Below are positions 2,656-58,629 of a stretch of DNA of 64,000 nucleotides, in pieces; position 1 is the first letter of the stretch, and every line of letters begins with the position of its first letter. Source of the stretch: Eledone cirrhosa (lineage: Eukaryota); NCBI GenBank assembly GCA_964016885.1, contig OZ024741.1, positions 124,310,001 to 124,374,000 of the forward strand. The letters are read 5' to 3'. The notes beneath the pieces were generated by a model that was given only the letters and a program-made list of their open reading frames with translations, was not told the DNA's origin and made no database searches. The translations under genes were made by a program, and so were the position numbers.

Positions 2656-2802
2656 TAAAATATAAATGATCACAATAATATCTATTTTGTTAATATTTGG
2701 AATTAATATGAATAACTCTGGAAAATATTTTTTTCTGTACAGTGCTTCCAATCTATTGTAAAACTCATTCTTTGATGTATTCATTGAATCTTGTTTAACA
2801 CT

Positions 2803-2865
<63 letters not shown>

Positions 2866-3077
2866 CGTTTCTGAATTTGTTTAGCAAGATTCTTTATCTG
2901 AAATCGTGTGTTGAAACCGATATTGTTATACTTTGGGAGGGTCATGTTGCCAATAAGAAACACACGCACCAGTTGCTTTCACTTCAATTTATTATATATT
3001 TATAAATTTACAAATTTATAAATTTATAAATTTCTGGTTGGTTGGTTGGTTCCACAACCAGATAGTTGTTTATATAT

Positions 3078-3122
3078 AGTCATAGTCCTTTCGTCACACA
3101 CTCTGTGGCCTCTTCAGTGACT
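3078..3122 (-). ncRNA. Minimal type I hammerhead ribozyme (inverted-arm copy)
   Basis: Reverse complement of 3866-3910 with one change in stem II. Confidence 0.85.
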
Positions 3123-3333
3123 GGGGATTCCTTTCTTTGTTTCTGTGCCTCTCCTTTCTCTGTCCTACGCCATTTTGTTTCTGTGTGTGTGTTGTGTGCT
3201 CAGTTTGCGCATACGCCACATCCGGGTGTCTGTGTGTGTTTATGTTCATTTATCTATTTGTTTATTTATTTATTTATTTACATGTTATTGGTTGGTTGTT
3301 TGTTCTATGTGTGTGTGTGTTTTCATTTTGTCC

Positions 3334-3720
3334 TTAATTGTAAGTTGTGATGTTGCTGTTCCACTCATATTTTCTATTTAATTTTGGTTGCAATTCTTTT
3401 ATGTTTATTGCCTCTGTAATTTGTCTAAACATTGCATCTTTTCTGTGTGTAGATTCTATTTTTATTTCTATGTTCTCTAATTTACCCTTGTGTTCTATCT
3501 TAGCATGTTGGTAGAGTACAGATGATTCTTTATTATCTTGAAGGTCCCGCCAGTGTTCCTTTATCCGTTCCCCTATACTACGAGCTGTCTCACCTATGTA
3601 CACTATATTTTTGTTTCTACATTGTCCTTCAGTACATCTTATGCTATACACTACATTTCTAGTTTTACAGTTAATATGGGGCCTTATTTTACAGGTTATA
3701 TATTTCTTATCTATACATGA
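3334..3720 (-). pseudogene. GIY-YIG endonuclease fragment of a PLE
   Basis: NCKTRNVVYSIRC...VYIGETARSIGERIKEH...RQITEAINI...PKLNRKYEW. The upstream part of ORF 3334..3843 is spurious because it reads the inverted arm. Confidence 0.9.
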
Positions 3721-3865
3721 TAATAAACAAATAGATAAATGAACATAAACACACACAGACACCCGGATGTGGCGCATGCGCAAACTTAGCACACAACACA
3801 CACACAGAAACAAAATGGCGTATGACAGAGAAAGGAGAGGCACAGAGACAAAGAAAGGAATCCCC

Positions 3866-3910
3866 AGTCACTGAAGAGGTCACAGAGTGTGTGACGAAAG
3901 GACTATGACT
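3866..3910 (+). ncRNA. Minimal type I hammerhead ribozyme
   Basis: agtca-CTGAAGA-g-gtcaca(gagtg)tgtgac-GAAA-g(ga)c-TA-tgact. Confidence 0.88.
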
Positions 3911-4122
3911 ATATATAAACAACTATCTGGTTGTGGAACCAACCAACCAACCAGAAATTTATAAATTTATAAATTTGTAAATTTATAAATATATAATAAA
4001 TTGAAGTGAAAGCAACTGGTGCGTGTGTTTCTTATTGGCAACATGACCCTCCCAAAGTATAACAATATCGGTTTCAACACACGATTTCAGATAAAGAATC
4101 TTGCTAAACAAATTCAGAAACG

Positions 4123-4186
<64 letters not shown>

Positions 4187-10560: not shown

Positions 10561-11065
10561 AAGACTTTTGCATACACTACGTGAGTCGAGTAAAACTAGT
10601 AAAATTCGCTTCCGCTTATAAATTTCATTCATAATAAGTGTTGGTCTATTTAACGCCAATATCATTTAGAATACATTCCGCCTGATTATTTTTCATTTCA
10701 TTTTGTTCTGTTATGTAGCTCATTCATTGGATTCAGTAAAGAGAAGAGAAAGGACAATATAGCACAGATTAGGTCAAAACAAATGTCATAAATAAAAAAG
10801 ATGAAAAAGTGTGTAACCTCTAAAGATTATTCGATTGATGAGCATACTTCGTTATTTTATCCTCCCGTGTACGGACGTTATCAATATGATAGGCAGATAG
10901 TTTGTAAAATGGATCTCCCTATTATACATACATACACACACACATACACACACACACACATATATATATATATACACACACCCCCTACACACATATACAC
11001 ATATATATATGTATACAATCCCCCACCACCACCACCACCACACACACACACACACACATATATAT

Positions 11066-12022
11066 ACTAGACATGAAAAATGCGCAAGCTCAAAAGTGCC
11101 ACAGAATGTTATAATAAACCTTCAAAAGTGTGGGACTAGAGTTGTTGCTAAAAAATATTGTAATCATTATAAATCGTACATTCTGTGGCATCCTTTATAA
11201 AAATAGCTTAAACCAACGAAGCCTTTATTTTTACGCTATTTCACTTAGTTAATTCTTAGAGTCTAACATATAAAAATATGATTTACAACTATAAAATAAA
11301 TTAATTAATATAATAACAGAGCTGCGGAGCTGAAATTTAGGAAATAATGGAGTATCGGATCCTGAGTTGGAGCCAGTCAATTTTTGGTCGACTCCGCAGC
11401 CCTGTATAATACATTTCATATTAAAGTTATTAATAAACCTATTTTACGCTGCATGCAAATTACCATGAGATATTGATATTAGATATAAGATACAGCGCAA
11501 TATCTACAGCTGTAAAAGTACGAAAGCGAAGTAATAATAAGTGGCTTAAGGTAATTCCAATATGAAAATTTGTAGCGATAAAAATTTGATAATGCAATAC
11601 GACTGTTAATATTATAGTTCTATGAAAATGTAACAATAGATAACTAAATTATTTTACTATTAGTATATTTAATAAATTATCATTATAGATTTGATCGTTC
11701 ATATAAGCATCATATTAATTTTCAACACAATTATTTTGTTACTATGAGTATATGATAATAATATTACGTAATTATTTATAGCTGTTATTACATTAAACAT
11801 AGATGTATTTATTTTTATATGTTACACTCTAAGAATTAACTAAGTGAAATAGCGTAAAAATAAAGGCTTCGTTGGTTTAAGCTATTTTTATAAAGGATGC
11901 CACAGAATGTACGATATATAATGATTACAATATTTTTTAGCAACAACTCTAGTCCCACACTTTTGAAGGTTTATTATAACATTCTTTGGCACGTTTGAGC
12001 TTGCGCATTTTTCATTTCTAGT
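11066..12022. mobile_element. Non-autonomous element with ~210-bp terminal inverted repeats (11066-11278, 11810-12022)
   Basis: Near-identical inverted arms, an AT-rich non-coding centre, and both termini ending CTAG|T. No clear TSD. Confidence 0.75.
11317..11404. mobile_element. 88-bp hAT-type MITE nested in the long-TIR element
   Basis: TIRs CAG(A/G)GCTGCGGAG; 8-bp flanks tataataa / tataatac match at 7 of 8 positions, consistent with a TSD. Confidence 0.7.
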
Positions 12023-12574
12023 TTAATATTTTTTTAAGGCAACGCTTGTAATAACTCTAGTTAAACAGGATATATATTAATAATAAATTATCGTTGTAAT
12101 GTAATTAGATTATGTAATTGTTATTATAAATTATCTTATAAATATTAGTGTAAGATGTATAAAAATATTTTCAGACTTTTAATATAAACAACTACAAAAA
12201 ACAATCAATATTAAATCAATATATTATACATAATAGAAAACATAAAATAAACAATACAAAAACAAAATATTTACATACAATTGCAATTATCAGTGTATAT
12301 ACATTTTCTTTATATTCCCTGAGCAAATTAATAAGATTTGTTTTTATTGTACATAATTTGATGACTTGTTGGAGTGTATTAAAAGATAGCAACAATTTGT
12401 GATTAAAGTGTTATCTTAAGCAACTCACTTTTTAATAGTTGTTGGCTGAGCGAAATTGTAAAAGCCTATGAGCAAATATAAAAAAAATACACAAACAACA
12501 TTTCCTTGTGTTATTACAACATTAGATAAAATAATTGAGCAATGTCGTTATATTTTGCTCTTATTGCACATTAA

Positions 12575-23029: not shown

Positions 23030-23090
<61 letters not shown>

Positions 23091-23140
23091 AATATAAGTA
23101 TGTATACGTACATACATATATGTATACAGACGTACAATAG

Positions 23141-23184
<44 letters not shown>

Positions 23185-23548
23185 CTATTTGCTGTATTTG
23201 CTGGCATGGACGTGCATCTGTGCGCCTATGTTAGTTGATATATTAAATTATCTATATTTATCTCCAAATCACTGATTTGTCGAGCAAACCTGCCAAAACC
23301 ACTTCAAAATTTTTTTATTTTTTTTTATGGGGGGGTGTTAGTAGGCGTCAGTCATCTTACCATCCCATTCCTTCTAACTAGCCTCTATGTCACGTGATTG
23401 ATTCTTTAGAATCGGACATTTGACTGGAAGCAGTGAGAATTTCAGTACATAGAATCCAGTCCTCGCCTAGCTGTTCTTTCTACTGAATTATTATGTTTAT
23501 ATGAGCCGCTAGTGTCCGCGCATTGCCTGGAGGCTTAGCTGAGAATAG

Positions 23549-23630
23549 ACTCCCTGATGACGCAATGAATTCTCGACAGTTGGATTATGTAACTGTCTTT
23601 ATCCCATTGCAGAAACTAATTAGTTGGAGT
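23549..23630 (+). ncRNA. Type I hammerhead ribozyme with extended stem II (copy 1)
   Basis: actcc-CTGATGA-c-gcaatg[..gacagtt..aactgtc..]cattgc-a-GAAAC-taatta-GTT-ggagt. Confidence 0.85.
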
Positions 23631-24104
23631 GAAAATTTAAGTAAGTAAGTAAAAAATTTTAAAAAAATTTTTTTTTTTAAATATTTTCTTATTTTACGTC
23701 TTTTATATTATTGTTCTGCACCCTCCTGCATTGAACCACCTAGGTACTATGACATAACCTGTGTATTTGCTGGCATGGACGTGCATCTGTGCGCCTATGT
23801 TAGTTGATATATTAAATTATCTATATTTATCTCCAAATCACTGATTTGTCGATCAAACCTGCCAAAACCACTTCAAAATTTGTTTTTTGGGGTGTTAGTA
23901 GGCGTCAGTCATCTTACCATCCCATTCCTTCTAACTAGCCTCTATGTCACGTGATTGATTCTTTAGAATCGGACATTGACTGGAAGCAGTGAGAATTTCA
24001 GTACATAGAATCCAGTCCTCGCCTAGCTGTTCTTTCTACTGAATTATTATTTTTATATGAGCCGCTAGTGTCCGCGCATTGCCTGGAGGCTCAGCTGAGA
24101 ATAG

Positions 24105-24186
24105 ACTCCCTGATGACGCAATGAATTCTCGACAGTTGGATTATGTAACTGTCTTTATCCCATTGCAGAAACTAATTAGTTGGAGT
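24105..24186 (+). ncRNA. Type I hammerhead ribozyme with extended stem II (copy 2)
   Basis: Same as copy 1. Confidence 0.85.
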
Positions 24187-24658
24187 GAAAATTTAAGTAA
24201 GTAAGAAAAAAATTTTTTTAAAATTTTTTTAAATATATTTTCTTATTTTACGTCTTTATATTATTGTTCTGCACCCTCCTGCATTGAACCACCTAGGTAC
24301 TATGACATAACCTGTGTATTTGCTGGCATGGACGTGCATCTGTGCGCCTATGTTAGTTGATATATTAAATTATCTATATTTATCTCCAAATCACGGATTT
24401 GTCGATCAAACCTGCCAAAACCACTTCAAAATTTTTTTTTTGGGGTGTTAGTAGGCTTCAGTCATCTTACCATCCCATTCCTTCTAACTAGCCTCTATGT
24501 CACGTGATTGATTCTTTAGAATCGGACATTTGACTGGAAGCAGTGAGAATTTCAGTACATAGAATCCAGTCCTCGTCTAGCTGTTCTTTCTACTGAATTA
24601 TTATTTTTATATGAGCCGCTAGTGTCCGCGCATTGCCTGGAGGCTCAGCTGAGAATAG

Positions 24659-24740
24659 ACTCCCTGATGACGCAATGAATTCTCGACAGTTGGATTATGT
24701 AACTGTCTTTATCCCATTGCAGAAACTAATTAGTTGGAGT
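24659..24740 (+). ncRNA. Type I hammerhead ribozyme with extended stem II (copy 3)
   Basis: Same as copy 1. Confidence 0.85.
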
Positions 24741-24806
24741 GAAAATTTAAGTAAGTAAGTAAAAAAAATTTTTAAAATTTTTTTTAAAATATTTTCTTAT
24801 TTTACG

Positions 24807-24909
<103 letters not shown>

Positions 24910-25171
24910 TAAATATACACGGGTGTGTATGATTTTGTATAGAAGATTATATTAATAAGAGGAATTCCAACTTTGTCTGATTTACTCGTTTTATTTACAA
25001 TCCTTTAAAATATATATAATATATAAAATATATATAATATATAAAACGAGTAAATCAGACAAAGTTGGAATTCCTCTTATTAATATAATCTTCTATACAC
25101 AATCATACACACCCGTGTATATTTACCTATCTATATCTATATATATATATTCCTATCGTGTATATGCCAAC

Positions 25172-26498
25172 ATGTCTGGAAAGCAACAAATGAAACCAAC
25201 AGAATCAGAAAGAATTCTAAAGGAGATATCATCGAAATTATCAACACTTATCACGATGATGGACACACAATCCTCTATTTTAAAGGAAATAGAAAAACAA
25301 TCTACAGACGGAAAACTTATAACTGAACATATAAACTCTGAAATTAAGAATTTAGCTGAAATTATACCAACAGTTATCAAAGATACAAGAGAAAGCCTAC
25401 CACAACCCCCTTGGATGTCAGAAATAAACGAAAGAAATTTGGAAAACAAAACACATCGAATAAGAAAAGAAATGTGGAAGACATGGAAAAAATTCCTTAA
25501 CATAAGAAAACAAAATTTCTGGAAAGCATACAGATGCGAACAATATGTCGAAACACATTCGAAATGGCTCTCTCTAACGGCACCCATACTCCCTCGTAAA
25601 TACCTAATTACAGAAATTGCAGGAGAACCAGAAGAAGAAACAAAACTCCGATGGGAACTTACATTCACAAAATTCAGGACCGACATCTCCATTTCTGAAT
25701 GTAAACAATCCCGCTACTAAGCCAAATATGAAGCTATTGATGACCAAATTGAAGTTGAAATTTCAAAGCTAACGACGAGAACTATGGATCGGAGATATCT
25801 CAAAAGAAGAAAACAAATCATGAAAGGTATGGCAGCAGAAACAATTATTTCTCGATGAATATGCTGCAAATTACGGTAAAGACTCTGGAACCCTGAGAAA
25901 AAGCATTAAAAGTGGATATTCTCATCAACACAACATACGCCAGAACACGTGCCAACACAAACACTCACCTTACCTTGAATCAAAGAAGAACTACGGTAAT
26001 AACTCTTCGCTTTTTCTACAAAAACACCCTATCGCACACAACATGAACAAAAAGCACAACCACGATAGGTATTCCTTTGACCAGACCATGAGAAGTAGTA
26101 AAACCAGGAGATCATTCTCAAGATCTCAACAGAGACTACCAACAAGGAATGTGGAAACAAAACATAGAATAACCAGATCACTCTCAAGATCTCAACAGAG
26201 ATTGCCCACAAGAAACTGGACGAAAAAACGATCTAAACCTGAAAGCAAACCTAGGTCATTTTCCCAGATTGTTAAAAATAATGCTAACAGGAAGAAAAAT
26301 AATATACAGAATACCAAAAATAGGACAAAATACATAACGAAACCAAATATAATATCACGACCAAAAGTTCATCAAGCGAACACCAACAGGAATATAAATC
26401 CTGAACAGAGAAAAATTCATATTTTAACGTCAGGACAACAAAAACCGGAAAAAGAAAAACTCCAGGAGGAAACATACCCAAAACAGCTGTACACGTAG
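25172..26498 (+). pseudogene. Upstream ORF / N-terminal region of the Neptune-type PLE (coiled-coil-like, then basic R/S/K-rich)
   Basis: ORFs 25115..25720 and 26043..26498 with first plausible ATG at 25172. Interrupted by a stop and frameshift. Contains a 66-bp-period repeat encoding RS(F/L)SRSQQRLPTRN. Confidence 0.6.
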
Positions 26499-26499
26499 A

Positions 26500-28728
26500 T
26501 CCTAAAATAATTAATTTATCTAAAAGAGATCTTGACAATGATGAAATGCAAATTCTGTCAAAAGGACTGAAATTCACACCGACTCCAACAGTCAACCACC
26601 AAGAACTGAAGGAGGATACCCAAGAATTCTGTCGTAAATTACATCTTGTAGAATTCTTCGCTGATAAAAATAATGAGAGTGATGAATTACTAGTAAAGAA
26701 TAAATCAAATTTCACTCCGCCAAAAGGAAGAAATATTTATCTCGACCAATACATTGAAATCCTGTCTAAATTTCCTCTTAGACATAATAATAATGTTAGG
26801 CCAAACATTAACAAATCAGAAATGTCTGCACTTAAACGTATACAAAATGATAAAACAATAATAATTAAACAAGCAGATAAAGGGGGTGCAGTTGTTATAA
26901 TGGATACTGAATACTACAAGGATTTGGTTGAGGAACAACTGAAAGACAACATTCTATCATGAAATACCGTCAAATATAGACCACAACATCATGAAGAAGA
27001 TCAACAACCTGGCTTCAAAATACCACAACTCATTTACTGATAAGGAAAGAGACTACATCACCAATTTTGAGCCGAAACCCAGCAACCTGTATGGCCTACC
27101 GAAAGTTCACAAGTCAAAAGAAATACAACTGGCAGTAAGAGAACAAAACAGTGAGTACATTAAATTATTACACCCAAAAGACTTAAAACTTAGACCTATT
27201 ATAACTGGTCCAACATGCCCCACTCACCGTCTAAGCAATTTTGTTGACATTATTTTGAAACCACTATGTATTCACATACCCAGTTTCATCCGGGATGATA
27301 TCGACTTCCTGTCCCATCTTCCCAAAACCACGGAAACGAATTCACTTCTACTCAGTTTTGATGTGGTAAGCCTTTACACCAACATTACACATGATTTAGG
27401 AATAAAGGCGGTTAAATACTGGGTGGAAAAACAGAGAAGTGATTCCCATTAGTTTCACAGCGCCACTTATATTAGACGCAGTTAAACTTATTCTGGAAAA
27501 CAACACTTTCTTCTTCAATGGAAAGAATTACATCCAAATTAGAAGCACAGCGATGGGAACGAAGTTTGCTCCCGTTTACGCGAACTCTGTAATGGGATAC
27601 TTAGAACAACAACTCTACCAAGAAATAGAGGAAAAATATAGTACTGACTTTAGAAAGTACATTGAAAAATCTTGGAAGAGATACCTTGACGACTGTTTCA
27701 TCATCTGGACAGAATCTCTAGATACTCTGGATGATTTCAATATCCTCCTGAATAACCTACACCCATCTCTCCAATTCACAAAAGAGATGAGTAGGACCAA
27801 ATTACCATTCCTAGATATAATGATAATCAAAAACGACACCATCATTACCACGGATATATATTATAAACACACAGACACCCATCAATATCTGAATTTTAAG
27901 TCGTGCCATCCACCTCATACAAAACGCAACATCCCATACTGCCTAGCCAGAAGAATTTGTACCATTGTAGAATATACGAATACCAGGTACAAACGCCTAA
28001 CAGAACTAAGAGAATTTTTGCTCAAACAAAAATACCCATCTCTACTTATAGAAAATGGCATACAGCGGGCTATAAAAATACCTATACAACAACTTAGAAC
28101 AACCCAAGGAAGAAGAAACCAAGAACTGGTCATACCATTTATAATGACACACAACCCCTGTCACCAGAATATATTCAACACTGCCAAAGCAAACCTACCG
28201 ATCATTGCTCAAAGTAATGAATTAAAAGGCTTAATCACAGATCGATCTTTGACTCTTAGTAAAAGACAGCCAAAAAATTTGAAGCAATTGCTAACAAAAG
28301 CAAAGTTTGACCTTAACAACAAAGACCAATCATTCACTGTATCTAAATGCAATGATAATCGATGCGGCACATGTCAATCCATACACGCCGGTCAATATAT
28401 GAAAACAAAAACTGGAAAAATATTCCCAAATGCAAATATGAACTGCAAAAGCAGAAATCTAATTTACTGCATTAAATGCCCGAATTGTGAAGAACTATAT
28501 GTCGGTCAAACTAGAAATGCACTATCGGAACGTGCACGGGTACACCGTCAACAAATCAGAGACCCAAATGTCTGTCAGATACCCCTAAGCGGCCACCTGG
28601 CAACATGTGGTCAGGGAATATTTATAATATTCCCATTCTACAAATTACACAGCCCAAGTGAAATCAAGAGAAAAATCAAAGAAAATTATTTTATTGATAA
28701 ATTCAAACCCAAGCTAAATGAGCAATAA
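26500..28728 (+). pseudogene. PLE reverse transcriptase-GIY-YIG polyprotein (two frameshifts)
   Basis: IINLS..LSKGLKFTP, IKQADKGGAVV, LYGLPKVHK, LRPII, SFDVVSLYTNI, TAMGTKFAP, WKRYLDDCF, FLDI, YYKHTD..SCHP, CxxxxCxxC linker, LIYCIKCPNC..YVGQT..R..H, FKPKLN. Frameshifts near 26960 and 27445. Confidence 0.95.
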
Positions 28729-29107
28729 TAACGCCTAGGGGTATTACTTCTACTACCACTATGACCACGACCACTAACAACAACAACAACAACAACAACA
28801 ATAATAATAATAATAAAAGTGATGTTGATGGTGATGATTAATAGAAAATGCTATTTTCATCATTTCAAAAAGCAAAACAATTGATACGTTGGTATGGCTA
28901 TTGGTCGTTAGCATGCGCAACCAGCCGTGACGCTTAAACCAATCAGCTGTAGTAATTCAGTGAAACTACACACTGATTGGTCGAAATACAGTTTACAGGG
29001 CTTTGCATTCTGGAGCCACTTTTCTCTGTATAAAATGTATAAAAGGTAGGAAATTTACCCATCTCATTACAGTTGAAAATTGCAAACTCGACTGTCACCA
29101 CATATCA

Positions 29108-29145
29108 TGAACCTGAAGATTGCGAAAGCATGAAAGTACTTGTTC
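29108..29145 (+). ncRNA. Minimal type I hammerhead ribozyme of the Neptune-type pLTR
   Basis: tgaac-CTGAAGA-t-tgc(gaaa)gca-t-GAAA-gtac-TT-gttca, with palindromic AAGTACTT at stem III. Confidence 0.85.
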
Positions 29146-29582
29146 AATTAAAACTTAGAATTTAATATTCTCTCATACTATTTCATTATAATACCATTAT
29201 ATATATTTTATAGGATTGTAAATAAAACGAGTAAATCAGACAAAGTTGGAATTCCTCTTATTAATATATATATATATATATATATATATGAAAACAAATA
29301 ACGAAACGAAATTAAATTTCGTTTCGTTTGTAACTCACTTTTGTATGACTGACGCTTAAACAATTAAGTTAAAAATGTACATCCACATATGTATACTGAA
29401 ATACTAGTATGCATATGAATACACACACGTGTACATATGTAGATGTACCGAGTTTTTCACTGGTCACTTTACTGTGAGTGTCCAGCTATTCTGTATGTAA
29501 GCACACAGACAAACCGGTTTTTAGAGTCATACTGGTTTTTGAGGAAACACCTTTCCTCTATTCTCCAGAAAGCCAGACAAGG

Positions 29583-29627
29583 AATATTGGACTAGTTTCG
29601 ATGTTGTTACATCTCATCAGCAATATT
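29583..29627 (-). ncRNA. Minimal type I hammerhead ribozyme
   Basis: Reverse complement of 30021-30065. Confidence 0.92.
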
Positions 29628-30020
29628 TACCTATCTTCCGGCCTTTCTAGAGAATCGTAAAAGCACATATCGTTATATGCTTTTTCTATGAAATAGCTGG
29701 ACACTCACAGTAAAGTGACCAGTGAAAAACTCGGTACATCTACATATGTACACGTGTGTGTATTCATATGCATACTAGTATTTCAGTATACATATGTGGA
29801 TGTACATTTTTAACTTAATTGTTTAAGCGTCAGTCATACAAAAGTGAGTTACAAACGAAACGAAATTTAATTTCGTTTCGTTATTTGTTTTTATCGTCTC
29901 CGTTGAACCGGTGCGTACTCACGCTCTATGCAAATTAGTCTGCCCACTAATAATTTTCATAGAAAAAGCATATAACGATATGTGCTTTTACGATTCTCTA
30001 GAAAGGCCGGAAGATAGGTA

Positions 30021-30065
30021 AATATTGCTGATGAGATGTAACAACATCGAAACTAGTCCAATATT
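30021..30065 (+). ncRNA. Minimal type I hammerhead ribozyme, canonical core
   Basis: aatattg-CTGATGA-gatgt(aaca)acatc-GAAAC-ta-GTC-caatatt. Confidence 0.93.
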
Positions 30066-30429
30066 CCTTGTCTGGCTTTCTGTAGAATAGAGGAAAGGTG
30101 TTTCCTCAAAAACCAGTATGACTCTAAAAACCTGTGTGTTTACATACAGAATAGCTGGACACTCACAGTAAAGTGACCAGTGAAAAACTCGGTACATCTA
30201 CATATGTACACGTGTGTGTATTCATATGCATACTAGTATTTCAGTATACATATGTGGATGTACATTTTTAACTTAATTATATATATATATGGATGTATAT
30301 ATAATGTATTTTGAATATATATATATACATACATGCACACATATATATATGTACGTATGGATTCACCGAACATTTATTATAATGCTCGGTGTGTTTGTAA
30401 ACAAACATCCTGAATTAAGCCGTAATATA

Positions 30430-30848
30430 GCAGAGTATAAAAGTTTTAATATAGATGAGATTCTACAGGACTAGAACTGTTTAATTCTTTAGAAATCATC
30501 AGGAATCTGGCCTTCCAAAAATAAATCTTTTCAGGTGGTAGGAGAGGGTGGGGAGTGGGATGGGTGGAGGTCATTGGTTGAAAGAAAAGGTAATTCATTA
30601 AAGGCTAATTCTTTAAGTCTATAGTTTATATTTAAAGTGACAAAGCAGAAAGGATTCTATGAACAGGTTCAGATTTGGGAGCCACTCCTTATTTTTAAGT
30701 TTCTCTTAAGCTAACAATGCCTATATTTCAGGTGTCTATAAGGTGATTGTGGGTCGGTCATGGTTGATGGATTTAAAGAAAAGGGAAATTCTTTATAAGC
30801 TAATTCTTTAAAGCTCTACTTAGAGTGACAAAGGCCAAGAGAATTCTA
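30430..30848 (-). mobile_element. Non-coding repeat with degenerate HHR (30468-30508); inverted homolog at 36940-37352
   Basis: About 420-bp inverted similarity. Minus strand reads gattc-CTGATGA-tttctaaagaat-TAAAC-a-GTT. Confidence 0.7.
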
Positions 30849-30941
30849 TATATATATGTATGTATGTATGTGTATATATGTGTTATATATATGTGTATGT
30901 ATGTGTGTATGTTTATGTATGTATATATATGCATATATATA

Positions 30942-30972
<31 letters not shown>

Positions 30973-31039
30973 GTTTGTATATATATATATATGTATATAT
31001 ATATGTATATATATATATATATGTATGTATGTATATATG

Positions 31040-31099
<60 letters not shown>

Positions 31100-31254
31100 A
31101 TATATATATGTATGTATATATATATATATGTATACATATATATATATATATATATATATAGTGGTGGGACACTGAAAGGTAATATCCGTAGTGGTAGAGC
31201 ACTCAGTCCAAGGGACGAGTTAGATAGAAGTGGTTACACAACAGTTAGTTCACC

Positions 31255-31300
31255 ATACCGAGAACAATTGTTTCACCTTCGTGGATCTTCAGCTCGGTAT
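31255..31300 (-). ncRNA. Minimal type I hammerhead ribozyme (Naiad-like pLTR)
   Basis: ataccgag-CTGAAGA-t-cc(acgaa)gg-t-GAAAC-aatt-GTT-ctcggtat. Confidence 0.85.
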
Positions 31301-34300
31301 GTATATGGTTATAGGAAGAGGAAGGATAACCGTACGAACGTGTATGCGCAGAAACTCGGTCACTTCACGCAGGCGATAGTAGACAGCTTGCGGGGGGTGT
31401 AAGGGATATAACTGCGAAAGCCCGGAAAGTTTTTTGGTTGAAAATAAAATAAAAAAATTTAAAAATAAAATTATAAAGAATCAGTCCGGAACCTTGTAGT
31501 TATATAATAGATGTTTGGTGACGTGTGGACAAAGTGTGAAAAATTCACTCCTCGTGTTTAGGAAATCATTATTGCGTAATCTCTTTAGAATAGTTATTCG
31601 TTCGTCAATACATAAGCCACACGTCGGATTTCCCCTTGCGTATGGCTTGGACTTAGTGATGGCTTTCCATTGAATGGAGTACCCTATACTTGAGTCCTTG
31701 AGGGACCATAGATGGCTCCTGAGTTTCGTGGATGAACGTCTGTCCGGGTATCTGAAGGTAGACTGGTGGTTCAGGTAACGCTCCTTGAATCGGCCATCCG
31801 CCATGCCCACATAGAATTTGACCTCCTGTGGTTCGTTTGGTCGGTTGCAAGTGACCAGAGCTTCATAGATTACAGCTGGTGTGTTTCATTGTTATTGAAG
31901 GGGGCAATTTTCAGGCTTACGGCAAGAGCACCCTGGTGGGGTATTGCTCCTAGGGCTGCTGGTGATGTGGGCCTTAGTGTTCTTAGCGCAGGACTATCCT
32001 AGTTTAACTTTGTGTCGGTTAAAGATGGAGCGGTATTTATGACCTATGGGGACGTGTCTATCTAAGAGGGCTAGACATTTTTTTCCTACATTGGTTTTAA
32101 CGTTGAGTGAGAAGGGATGAGAGAACCAGATAGTTTGTCTATTGATGCGCTTACTTTTTTTAATGGTGTTGTTGCTAGTGGGAGACTAGGTGATAGGTTG
32201 TGAGAAGCCGCTGTTAGCCAACGCCGTGTTATAGTATGGTGCCGCCCTGTCAAAGATAGCCTTATTAGAGGAGAGGTTTGAGATTCTAGTACTGATATTC
32301 TTAACGAAGTTTCTAAAAACAGTGGGAGGGTGGCATGAGTCCTTGTGAATTTAATTAAGTTTCTCGTTTAGCTAATGGAAGGGTCTGTGGGTGTGTGTGC
32401 GAAGGTCTAAATTAATGTCTAAGAAATCCACGCTAGAGAGGTTGGTAGCTACTGTTATCCTGAGGCCTAACTCATTGAAGGTAGAAGCTAAGTCTTTTTT
32501 AAACCGGTCGAGGTCGTGACCACTTTTATGGCTCGATAAAGACAATCCATCGTCACGGTATATTCCCGTGTGGAAGTCCGGGAATCTAACACGTAATATG
32601 TCTGAAATAAAAAGGCCAACCAAGTCACATACGTCAGCACTGTCAAACGATCCCATGGAGACGTCGAACAGGTCTGAAGATGTAGACTTCTTTGCCCAGG
32701 CTACTCCGTCGTTGAAGAGGAGGGTTTTCCGGCAGTGAGCGATGATTTCCCTGTCTAAACCATCAACGGTGGTATAAGTGGTAGCGAAGTCCAACGCTTT
32801 GTTTAACAGGGTCTCTGAGATCGACGGGAAAAATCGACAATGTCAAACTTTAAACTTCGCTTTTTTTGAATTTTAAGGTGTTAAACCACTTAATTACGGA
32901 GTCGCTGTTCTCAACTGGGGTAGGTTGGACTTGATTCTAATGGTCTTAACTATGTTTCTAAGTATGGCCTTACTGACTAGTCCCATATCTGTGCGTGCCG
33001 GGTTTATTAGTTTGCATGTGGGGTTAGAAGTAAAGTCTACCTTGTGATCTTTCAGGGTGAGGAACGCCTCTCGCTTAGCTAGAGATTGTAGCTTCTTATC
33101 TACCTTAAGGTCGCCGGCGAGTTCCTTGGCTTCTGTATTAATGTCGTGGTAGGACATAGGTTTAGCGTTCTTATATTTAGAAGTAATAGCGTTATGGGCC
33201 AGGTGGCCGACTTCGTAAATACTGTTAGTTTTGTCGGAAAGGATGGTGTTATTAGAAAACCTAAATTTCTTAATATCGTTTCTGAGTTTCGTTTGAAAGG
33301 TGTTAGTGTGTTTCGAAAGGAAAAGTTAGCGACTAAGTCAAGAAGGTCCGTCTCGAAAGGAGCAAGTTCGGTAACCTTAGGAGGGTAGGCTCTCAATTTC
33401 AGGTTGAAGGTGTTGTTTCCACTGTTTTTAGAAACTTGGTTAAGAATATCAGTACTAGAATCTCAAACCTCTCCTGTAATAAGGCTATCTTTGACAGGGC
33501 GGCACCCTATTATAACACGGCGTTGGCCAAAAGCGGCTTCTCACAACCTCTCACCTACTCGCCCACTAACAACAACACCATTAAAAAAAGTAAGCGCATC
33601 AATAGATAAACTATCTGGTTCTCTCCTCCCTTCTCACTCAACGTTAAAACCAATGTCGGAAAAAAATGTCTAGCCCTCTTAGATAGCAACTTCCCCATAG
33701 GTCACAAATACCGCTCCATATTTAACCGACACAAAGTTAAACTAGGATACTCCAGCGCTAAGAACATGAAGGCCCACATCACCAGCAGCCCTAGGAGCAA
33801 CACCCCACCAGGGTGCTGTTGCCGTAAGCCTGACGCTTGCCCCCTTAAATAACAATGCAACACACCAGCTGTAATCTATGAAGCTGTGGTCACTTCCAAC
33901 CGACCAAACGAACCACAGGAGGTCAAATCCTATGTGGGCATGGCGGATGGGGATTCAAGGAGCCTTTCCTGAACCACCAGTCTACCTTCAGATACCCGGA
34001 CAGACGTTCATCCACGAAACTCGCGAGCCACCTATGGTCCCTCAAGGACTCAAGTACATGGTACTCCATTCAATGGAAAGCCATCACTAAGTCCAAGCCA
34101 TACGCAAGGGGAAATCCGACGTGTGGCTTATGTATTGACGAACGAATAACTATCCTAAAGAGATTACGCAATAGTGATTGCCTAAACACGAGGAGTGAAT
34201 TTTTCACACGTTATCCACATGTCACCAAACGGACTGATTCGTTGTAATTTTATTTTTAAATTTTTTATTTTATTTTCAACCCAAAAACTTTCCGGACTTT

Positions 34301-34416
34301 CGCAGTTATCTCCCTTACACTCCCCGCAAGCAGTCTACTATTGCCTGCTTGAAGTGACCGAGTTTCTGCGCATGCGCGTTCGTACGGTTGTCCTTCCTGT
34401 TCCTATAACCATATAC

Positions 34417-34462
34417 ATCCCGAGCTGAAGATCCGCGAAGGTGAAACAATTGTTCTCGGTAT
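34417..34462 (+). ncRNA. Minimal type I hammerhead ribozyme (inverted-arm copy)
   Basis: ccgag-CTGAAGA-tccgcgaaggt-GAAAC-aatt-GTT-ctcgg. Confidence 0.82.
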
Positions 34463-34500
34463 GGTGAACTAACTGTTGTGTAACCACTTCTATATATATA

Positions 34501-34856
<356 letters not shown>

Positions 34857-34867
34857 TGTATGTATAT

Positions 34868-35952
34868 ATTCTTCTCCCCATTTTTTCACATATATTTACT
34901 TAAACTGCGATTCCGTTTTTCTCTCTCTCTCTCTCTTACTGCTCCCTCGTTCTCTCTGTTTCTCTTACTTTCTTTCGTCCCCTCTGTCATGTCAGTTAAC
35001 ACTTTCTCTCTACTGACCTCTTCCTCACACTTCCACTCACTCACTCACTGTTTCTCCCCTTCTCACTTTCCCCCGTTCGCGATGTTAACGATTTTCCTTC
35101 TTTCTTACATTGGATTCATCTCGAAAGGTCTAATTTTTACTCGCTCATATATTCACCCAGCTTATACTGATAGAATAACTATGTAGCTTGTGTCTTTCCT
35201 ATCTTCGGTTAGATTTCCTCTGTGTTGTTTACTTGTCTCACTCGCTTTACGCGTTTTAATTGTCCTAATAACTTATTTTAGTTATTATTGCGCCAACGTG
35301 AGGTATATGATTTTTAATGCAATGAAATACCTATGACCGTTGGTAAATCTCTGACGAGGGACTCATATTATAACATGTTATCCATGTGCAACCATGCAGT
35401 ATTCTTCTCCCCGTTTTTTCACATATATTTACCTAAACTCCGATTCTGTTTTTCTCTCTCTCTCTCTTACTGCTCCCTCGTTCTCTCTGTTTCTCTTACT
35501 TTCTTTCGTCCCCTCTGTTATGTCAGTTAACCCTTTCTCTATACTTACCTCTTCCTCACACTTCCACTCACTCACTCACTGTTTCTCCCCTTCTCACTTC
35601 CCCCCGTTCGCGATGTTAACGATTTTCCTTCTTTCTTACATTGGATTCATCCCGAAAGGTCTATTTTCTACTCGCTCATATATTCACCCAGCTTATACTG
35701 ATAGAATAACTATGTAGCTTGTGTCTTTCCTATCCTCGGTTAGCTTTCCTCTGTGTTGTTTACTTGTCTCACTCGCTTTACGCGTTTTAATTGTCCTAAT
35801 AACTTATTTTAGTTATTATTGCGCCAACGTGAGGTATATGAATTTTAATGCAATGAAATACCTATGACCGTTGGTAAATCACTGATGAGGGACTCATTTT
35901 ATAACATGTTATCCATGTGCAACCATGCAGTATTCTTCTCCCCATTTTTTCA
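34868..35952 (+). repeat. Tandem ~532-bp non-coding unit (2 copies plus ~20 bp) between (TA)n tracts
   Basis: attcttctcccc starts at 34868, 35401 and 35932. The unit is pyrimidine-rich and contains CTGA(C/T)GA. Confidence 0.85.
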
Positions 35953-36220
35953 TATATATATATATATATAAATACTACTACACCAAATGACCAGCCCTGT
36001 CCACTGTCCATTTGGTCAAGTAGAGATTAAAATTGGCACTCCCAAAAATTCTTATTTAGACAAAATGAACCATTTACTCATGGTATTCTCATTAGAAACC
36101 CATTATATACTTGTTTAGCAGTAAATTGATTTACCATCTGTCATAAACTATCCTCTCTTTTTCTTCCTCTATTATTAATATAAATACTTCAATTTTTCTG
36201 ATTTTATCCAATTTATCCAA

Positions 36221-44689: not shown

Positions 44690-44997
44690 ATGGCATGTAT
44701 ATATAATGTCGTTTATTGAACTTTAAAGGTGTCGGTGGTTGTTGCCCCTGTCCCCTAAGAAACATAAGCACCGTCTGAGGTAATTTTCCTTGACCATGAT
44801 ATGAGTATATATATATATATATAAATATATATAAACAAAGAAAGTGTGGCAAGAAATCAGGTGGGCCATAGCGCACCAGAGTACTCAATACTTAGGGTAG
44901 TAGAGTGGGTAATAGGGAAAGAGTTAGGAACCCGACGGCTGAGCCCATGCCGTTTCGACAGCTAGATCCGAACTCGGATCTAGCTGTCGAAACGGCA
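44690..44997 (-). mobile_element. Fold-back repeat carrying the 3' half of an HHR
   Basis: Minus strand reads ctagctgtc-GAAAC-ggc..gcc-GTC-gggttcc. Perfect hairpin at 44948-44997. Body is shared with 45363-45640 and 58711-58930. Confidence 0.75.
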
Positions 44998-45061
44998 AAG
45001 TTTGTTTACCCTTATGTGGAAGTTATGTATTTCTATTGTCTCTTCCGTATATATATATAGA

Positions 45062-45246
45062 TGGATTGGCAGTATCGGTAGAGGTTCGGACGCCATGCTT
45101 TGCAGCAGAGAGTTACGGCCCTTTATGATCTAAGTTCAAATCCCGCTGAGGTTAACTTTGCCTTTCATCCTTACGGAGTCGATAAAATAAAGTACCAGTA
45201 ATGCACTGGGTAATTAGTGGTCTTGTGCCAAAAGTAGAAACAATTA
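45062..45246 (+). mobile_element. tRNA-derived SINE (dominant family), full length
   Basis: Match to the family consensus. Confidence 0.88.
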
Positions 45247-45362
45247 TATATATATTAAATCTACTTTGCTTGGAACCATTCGTTCTTACATTTTCATTGG
45301 GTGAATGGATATTCAACCGTAATCAAGTCGAGGTGCGTTTCTACAGCATTGTATATATATAT

Positions 45363-45640
45363 GGGAAAGTAGTCAGGACCCCGACGGCTGAGCTCCGGCC
45401 TTTTCGACAGCTAGATCCGACGTCGGATCTAGCTGTCGAAACGGCATGTGTCCGGGGTCCTGACTCTTTTCCTATTGCCCACTCTACTACCCTAAGTATC
45501 GAGTACTCTGGTGCGCTATGGTCCACCTGGTTTCTAACCACACTTTGTTTGTTTACATATATATATATATACATATACTCATATCATGGTCAAGGAAAAT
45601 TACCTCATGTTTCTAAATTACCTCATGTTTCTATGTTTCT
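45363..45640 (+). mobile_element. Fold-back repeat carrying the 3' half of an HHR (second copy)
   Basis: Hairpin 45363-45475 centred at 45421-45422, then the shared ctaccctaagtat(c/t)gagtactctggtgcg body. Confidence 0.75.
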
Positions 45641-58337: not shown

Positions 58338-58629
58338 ACGAGAGGAAGAGAGAGAGAGAGAGAGAGATTATATATATATAAATATAAGTATGTATGTATA
58401 CGTACATACATACATATATGTATACAGACGCACAGCAGTATGTATATATATACATACATGCACACATATATATATGCACGTATACATACATACATACATA
58501 CTTACTTTTAAGTAAGTGCCGTCCTAAGACTGAGAAATGAAATTTCGTTTCATTCTATTCTATATATAAATATATATATATATAGATAGATTATAACTAT
58601 ATATCTATATAGTTATAATCTATATATAA

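Follow-up and report, generated by a model that had tools for sequence, protein, structure and literature searches.

Two inverted arms of a hammerhead-bearing repeat stand head to head in the 64,000-nucleotide stretch of Eledone cirrhosa DNA analysed here (the window), and they raise the question of what inserted them into a (TA)n tract and which RNA served as template. From sequence comparison, we consider it probable that the locus at 29290-30278 is a retrozyme inserted into (TA)n by a borrowed Penelope-like element (PLE) enzyme, which would have copied one RNA from both sides of the cut, that RNA being most likely circular. The parts of the insertion and its left-hand neighbour are as follows, with unit positions (c) counted from c1, the first base after the predicted hammerhead cut, on the ruler of one natural monomer from locus L074.

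24908..29268, plus strand: Neptune-type Penelope-like element, with a frameshifted ORF, a C-terminal GIY-YIG at 27406-28728 and a hammerhead variant at 29108-29146
29267..29289, no strand: (TA)n target tract on the left, which also flanks the Neptune-type element at its 3′ end
29290..29693, minus strand: minus arm of 0.87 unit, 5′ end at c363, running across the hammerhead to a 3′ end at site B (c299-302) and into (TA)n
29583..29627, minus strand: type I hammerhead motif of the minus arm, built as on the plus arm, predicted cut after 29590
29692..29693, no strand: central head-to-head junction, a 2-nt overlap (microhomology) common to both arms
29692..30278, plus strand: plus arm of 1.28 units, from its 5′ end at c100 to a 3′ end at site A (c228) and into (TA)n
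30021..30065, plus strand: type I hammerhead motif with a 7-bp stem I, 5-bp stem II, 1-2-bp helix III and palindromic loop, predicted cut after 30058
30131..30132, plus strand: site of an 8-nt deletion that gives the plus arm a period of 458 instead of 466
30279..30290, no strand: right (TA)n target tract

An earlier note on this DNA had described head-to-head arms of a 458-nt unit, about 1.3 units long on the plus side. The arms are indeed inverted (minus, 29693 to 29290; plus, 29692 to 30278), and the plus arm measures 1.28 units by a direct repeat at lag 458 that is exact over 129 nt. However, the unit of the family is 466 nt (463-470 across subfamilies), and the figure of 458 stems from the 8-nt deletion after 30131 in the plus arm. 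The minus arm is 404-406 nt long and lacks 60 nt of the 466-nt unit. The arms had been taken for different permutations of the unit, which applies to their inner ends only; the outer ends are not arbitrary. The unit has no ORF, as had been claimed; when it is repeated in tandem, the longest stop-free stretch is 60 codons and the longest ATG ORF 50 codons. Amongst the palindromes listed earlier, the shorter motifs are truly palindromic, but the 27-mer acgaaacg...cgt is an imperfect palindrome that makes a 12-13-bp hairpin.

The repeat carries a predicted self-cleaving RNA motif. The canonical hammerhead reported for each arm was recovered, with a 7-bp stem I, the palindromic ACTAGT and GUC before the predicted cut on both, and its form agrees with the ‘canonical’ definition of PMC4209133. 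A strict scan of the 64 kb returned only two hits, one per arm, and a looser scan added the Neptune-type element's own variant at 29108-29146; an Rfam scan of the whole 64-kb window at gathering thresholds gave no hits, hammerheads included. Stems I and II show compensatory changes across subfamilies and relatives, with GUC, GUU or GUA as the triplet. The 66-nt hammerhead region folds with a z-score of -2.1 (8 of 200 shuffles were equally good), and the monomer as a circle is predicted to fold at -147.6 kcal/mol (z -9.8, 60 shuffles), with 66% of bases paired and the hammerhead stems formed. ‘Canonical’ metazoan type I motifs with such a weak helix III cleave efficiently only as dimers (PMC4209133). 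As each arm holds one hammerhead, this locus is likely to be unable to release a monomer on its own, and tandem arrays are the likely sources.

The insertion is almost certainly a copy of an abundant ORF-less 466-nt hammerhead repeat family of the non-LTR retrozyme class, and a young copy of that family. Across the genome assembly (3.0 Gb, 1,796 contigs), the 38-nt hammerhead core had 1,582 exact matches, against 0 for the reversed control, and exact junctions between the B end and (TA)n numbered 1,592. Thirty loci were fetched by similarity, another 30 as the first hammerhead loci by position on contig C1, and 10 as extensions. Arrays with the 466-nt period hold from 2 to more than 16 units, whereas the arms at 29290-30278 reach only 1.28 and 0.87; the ends of the retrozyme abut (TA)n directly, with no LTR. 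Two very long arrays, each fetched in part, have the look of satellite-like expansion: one of ~33 kb (G000:C1:81846900-81880700, L093-L235) and one of more than 40 kb in a 470-nt subfamily (C1:95636000-95676900, L238-L237). At unit positions c24-27, single-unit changes recur on differing haplotypes, in part a selection effect of the similarity search. In L098:4561-6591, the 5′ end of a retrozyme arm adjoins a long ORF in the same orientation, which we take to be LINE-like. Contigs were compared from five sequencing runs of unrecorded library type: those of X1 and X2 have loose ends into (TA)n at the two outer-end sites A and B described below, and X4 and X5 gave one unit-length contig each (495 and 496 nt), which is given no weight here because either a circle or a tandem array would yield it.

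Animal non-LTR retrozymes are an already published class, of which the 466-nt family is a further member. The likenesses to the elements in PMC7229834 are ORF-less tandem repeats, one type I hammerhead per unit, low GC, a highly self-paired circle and no LTR; PBS and PPT are absent in the published class. The published units of 150-450 bp are shorter than the 466 nt found here, and expression and circles were shown for them. Li, Clavereau and Pollet (bioRxiv 10.64898/2026.07.22.740005) treat the same class, with consensus lengths of 51-972 bp that include 466, and argue for a PLE origin from co-occurrence in Xenopus and homology to pseudo-LTRs (pLTRs); we argue from an insertion footprint and found no homologous pLTR. 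Newt satellite 2 and axolotl HHR_Amex1 (PMC7229834, PMC4209133) share the weak helix III, the palindromic loop and the expectation of dimer cleavage. A literature search on octopus and hammerhead ribozymes found nothing relevant.

The retrozyme had been placed about 25 bp from the Neptune-type element; the gap consists of a (TA)n tract of ~21-23 nt. We assume that the label ‘Neptune-type’, which the earlier note gave to the copy at 24908..29268, is apt, and the CxxC linker is consistent with it. A functional link of the retrozyme to this adjacent copy was considered and rejected: the two have no sequence homology, and none of 29 other retrozyme loci matches the Neptune-type element. For these reasons, the most reasonable reading of their nearness is that they share a (TA)n target.

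Several further repeats with related features lie in the window. At 23193-24816, a 554-nt unit is repeated in tandem about three times; its hammerhead-like core is not amongst the scan hits, and it is probably the other ORF-less family of the earlier note. The intervals 30848-34857, 11058-12029, 44776-45607 and 34867-35998 hold more inverted insertions of the head-to-head type, together with a tandem repeat of 531 nt that has a hammerhead-like core.

If the retrozyme borrows a PLE enzyme, its ends should bear on the matter, and the check proposed earlier, of mapping copy endpoints onto a circular consensus, was carried out on the sampled loci. Outer (3′) ends were fixed at A or B, and inner ends were scattered. 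The sites and the motifs that surround them within the plus arm are the following.

29814..29827, plus strand: small predicted hairpin whose loop holds site A (internal copy, 29820-29825); an analogous hairpin occurs in a sister family
29854..29883, plus strand: predicted long hairpin of the ‘tail’ that separates A from B, with a counterpart in the sister family
29892..29894, plus strand: site B in its internal read-through context (c300-302)
29928..29938, plus strand: octamer-like motif kept between the 466-nt family and the sister family

Outer ends lie at site A (c225-233) or site B (c296-302), ~72 nt apart, and run into (TA)n with 1-3 nt assignable to either unit or target. Both outer ends fall at these sites in 38 of 43 distinct two-armed insertions, and every one of the 38 has one A and one B end (38/38). 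This table was entered by hand and rechecked with automatic end calling; at L011, L068 and L083, which have a deletion near the end, the class was taken from the flank. The other five (L012, L022, L063, L084 and L093) have one end off A and B, and none is A+A or B+B. In L084, widely spaced hammerheads on opposite strands were considered as an ORF-bearing arm, which was rejected: the locus is an inverted duplication that includes flanking DNA and has no PLE ORF. The 30 loci taken in order of position gave 23 that could be classified, all A+B (23/23), the remaining seven being four single-armed loci, two off-site or complex ones and one array with unseen ends. A check on coordinates alone set the first 100 B ends against the 62 distinct A ends of the same span and again gave A+B for all 23 divergent end pairs within 5 kb, with no A+A and no B+B; five of these 23 pairs are shared with the first set. 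When the limit was set at 12 kb, a B+B pair appeared at 6.4 kb and was rejected as one insertion, as it consists of two separate insertions, L239 and L062.

Orientation is random (the B end is on the left in 20/38), and arm length does not differ between A and B arms (p 0.40). Inner (5′) ends are uniform round the unit (KS p 0.79), with 1 of 76 within 3 nt of the predicted cut against 1.1 expected, and they join with a 0-7-nt overlap or short filler. The proportion of arms that cross the hammerhead, 69/76, is inflated because loci were picked via the hammerhead.

A sister family, 67-74% identical over c143-382, has units of 422-538 nt and 24,750 pattern matches in the genome. In its hammerhead, the triplet is GUA, and stems I and II have changed in a compensatory manner. 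Both of its ends lie at homologous places, and the six two-armed insertions that could be seen in 30 loci are all A+B. The loop of the small predicted hairpin contains A in both families, and B lies ~10 nt past the long one. PLE tails fold weakly, and a recognition structure common to retrozymes and PLEs is therefore a guess. Pieces of the sister family are also found in the window at 30279-30424, 23085-23180 (minus strand) and 58379-58567. Those at 30279-30424 and 23085-23180 may be the two halves of a single older sister copy whose internal (TA)n took the 554-nt repeat, the Neptune-type element and the retrozyme, a reading that their low complexity makes uncertain.

The octamer-like motif does not support an snRNA-type promoter, as the upstream regions of 14 U1 and U2 genes are without the octamer. 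What the U1 and U2 genes of the genome (L171-L174, L191-L204) have in common is a short motif in the proximal position, near -56, and a distal one near -250 that is rich in pyrimidines. The distal motif is absent from the unit (best match, 2-3 mismatches of 11), and the 5-nt proximal core, which does occur there, is too short to count. Newt satellite 2 has an snRNA-type promoter (PMC2220036, a citing passage), for which the comparison with host U1/U2 elements gave no support in the 466-nt unit.

The retrozyme thus has the features of PLE-type insertion: two fixed 3′ ends that bound a tail, an inverted 5′-truncated arm and a (TA)n target. Hallmarks of EN+ PLEs such as Neptune and Naiad are partial tandems, an inverted 5′-truncated copy, a 30-40-bp tail often at one end and a bias to (TA)n (Craig et al. 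2021, PMC8557442). The adjacent Neptune-type copy too has two arms, one with a tailed end and the other with an untailed one, as do all six two-armed copies of its family (the window copy and 5/5 visible among 30 loci). This one-tail rule is not universal for PLEs, as a two-armed insertion of another PLE family at 2802-4186 (GIY-YIG C-terminus) has the tail on both arms. In vitro, the Poseidon element of Anolis starts reverse transcription at two internal sites that bound the tail, and a predicted dimer cleaves and extends both strands (Frangieh et al. 2024, PMC11167929), which we liken to the A and B ends. Differences from the EN+ PLEs (PMC8557442, PMC11167929) are that their tail is 30-40 rather than ~72 nt, that their hammerhead is minimal where that of the retrozyme is canonical, and that the 466-nt unit is ORF-free. 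As the arms end at two different fixed points, like those of the adjacent PLE, borrowed Penelope enzymes are likely, and we regard an insertion driven by a PLE as very well supported by this footprint. Amongst 60 PLE loci (30 GIY-YIG matches and 30 Neptune-type), no parent homologous to the retrozyme was found, the 30 GIY-YIG loci compared being 30 of 150 scored out of 10,597 candidate sites. A DNA search with the 111-nt tail alone gave no match, an outcome without weight because its words are common ones.

The haplotypes of the arms give information on the template. Of 34 loci, 28 two-armed insertions were compared, four having been dropped for duplication or misalignment and two being single-armed. 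Arms differed by 0.35 per 100 nt within an insertion and by 1.68 between insertions (n=28), or by 0.09 and 1.42 when only recurrent variants were counted. An insertion's own other arm was among the nearest in 25/28 cases, 10 of them with ties, and 8/28 insertions had in both arms a variant absent from the other sampled loci (‘private’ within the 34 loci only); in L074, all nine unit pieces are identical. These patterns suggest that both arms of an insertion are likely to derive from one RNA or one RNA species. Where units join across the cut site, 208/209 junctions have no indels. The common haplotype, the lack of a 5′ pile-up at the cut and these clean junctions make it unlikely that a cut linear monomer was the template, whether or not there were template jumps.

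The earlier note proposed reverse transcription round a circular RNA. We also favour a circular template, with modest confidence, and a circle would account for long homogeneous arms (up to 16 units) together with insertion-specific haplotypes. Length beyond one unit is no proof of it, however, since an identical picture arises from a multimeric tandem-array transcript that was left uncut. That the same Penelope-type enzyme copied such a linear read-through transcript, with the hammerhead as a later processing device or a passenger, is in our judgement rather unlikely, although several observations speak for it. Uncut RNA was the dominant PLE substrate in vitro, and hammerhead mutants were without effect on insertion (PMC11167929); the arrays of ~33 kb (L093-L235) and >40 kb (L238-L237) are candidate sources; and scattered 5′ ends and clean junctions are equally compatible. 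Minority variants are common to both arms in 4/17 multi-unit two-armed insertions, and the L095 and L077 arrays show period-2 or period-4 unit patterns, from which it follows that some templates were multimeric or that arms were homogenised later; possible causes are circles of several units, linear multimers and later conversion. On the other hand, variants fixed in all units of both arms and unique among the sampled loci (8/28; L074) need a bottleneck of one unit, and 16-unit arms would have had to escape hammerheads that are kept under compensatory change.

It is highly improbable that the unit is the ordinary pLTR of an autonomous Penelope-like family whose copies are 5′-truncated. Its insertion geometry is that of PLEs (PMC8557442) and Xenopus retrozymes are related to pLTRs (bioRxiv 10.64898/2026.07.22.740005), but the sequence upstream of a unit is in every case a further unit, the opposite arm or unrelated DNA, 11 single- or short-arm contexts have no common upstream sequence, and ORF-free arrays reach 16 units and more. 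The unit occurs in 4/60 PLE loci (this locus, a separate copy and sister-family copies), in none as a terminal repeat in the BLAST table. A single locus, L131:5400-8950 (G000:C14), does join an arm to PLE coding sequence. It is a three-part mosaic: a PLE reverse transcriptase arm is followed by 616 nt of retrozyme that stop at c358, and these overlap by 2 nt with the 3′ end of a different PLE family. This single case may record a template switch or later deletions. There, the unit stands before the ORF's C-terminus, the wrong order for a pLTR, and none of the sampled copies runs on into a PLE ORF in pLTR order, the outcome that the earlier note had named as contrary to its reading. We give least credence to self-cleaved linear monomers copied by end-to-end template jumping, or to satellite expansion at the DNA level with later fold-back inversion. 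The longest arrays (L093, L094) do contain recurrent multi-unit blocks typical of unequal exchange, and DNA-level expansion may lengthen some arrays after insertion; yet 5′ ends do not pile up at the cut, junctions are clean, and a DNA fold-back would not yield two different fixed ends at (TA)n in dispersed loci.

Our data are consistent with a model of retrozyme insertion by a PLE enzyme in which tandem arrays would be transcribed, adjacent hammerheads would cut as a pair, and ligation would close the monomers, or sometimes multimers, into circles. The hairpin ‘tail’ between A and B would then be bound by a PLE protein dimer, which would nick both strands of (TA)n; TA pairing over 1-3 nt would prime one cDNA at A and another at B. 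The distance that each reverse transcriptase covers round the template would vary, and microhomology repair would unite the two cDNA ends. The more specific picture, in which the dimer primes both target strands from two sites on one RNA circle and two reverse transcriptases chase each other round the 466-nt ring, is put forward tentatively. Besides the uncut RNA and the hammerhead mutants, the Anolis experiments count against our preferred explanation in that they showed no difference in start site between strands (PMC11167929); so does the cleavage in vitro of only one of nine Xenopus retrozyme dimers (bioRxiv 10.64898/2026.07.22.740005).

A circular template and a PLE driver have already been proposed for animal non-LTR retrozymes (Cervera and de la Pena 2020, PMC7229834), where the enzyme that moves them is stated to be open and PLEs are named as candidates. 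In the literature searched, the supplement of PMC7229834 apart, no description was found of two-armed retrozyme insertions with fixed A and B ends, and the available text of PMC8557442 and PMC11167929 holds no statement of a strict pairing of one A and one B per event for PLEs. The ~1,600 exact B ends, the one-A-one-B rule and the haplotype-matched arms constitute genomic evidence for a PLE driver, whilst the one-A-one-B footprint alone is no proof of a circular template. They also lead to a prediction for the in vitro PLE assay, namely that the two start sites should be used one per strand within each event. How PLEs make tandem and inverted insertions is stated to be open (PMC8557442). If twin priming on a circle is true, the retrozyme would be a minimal, ORF-free substrate that explains both the tandem and inverted insertions of PLEs and the arrays of retrozymes.
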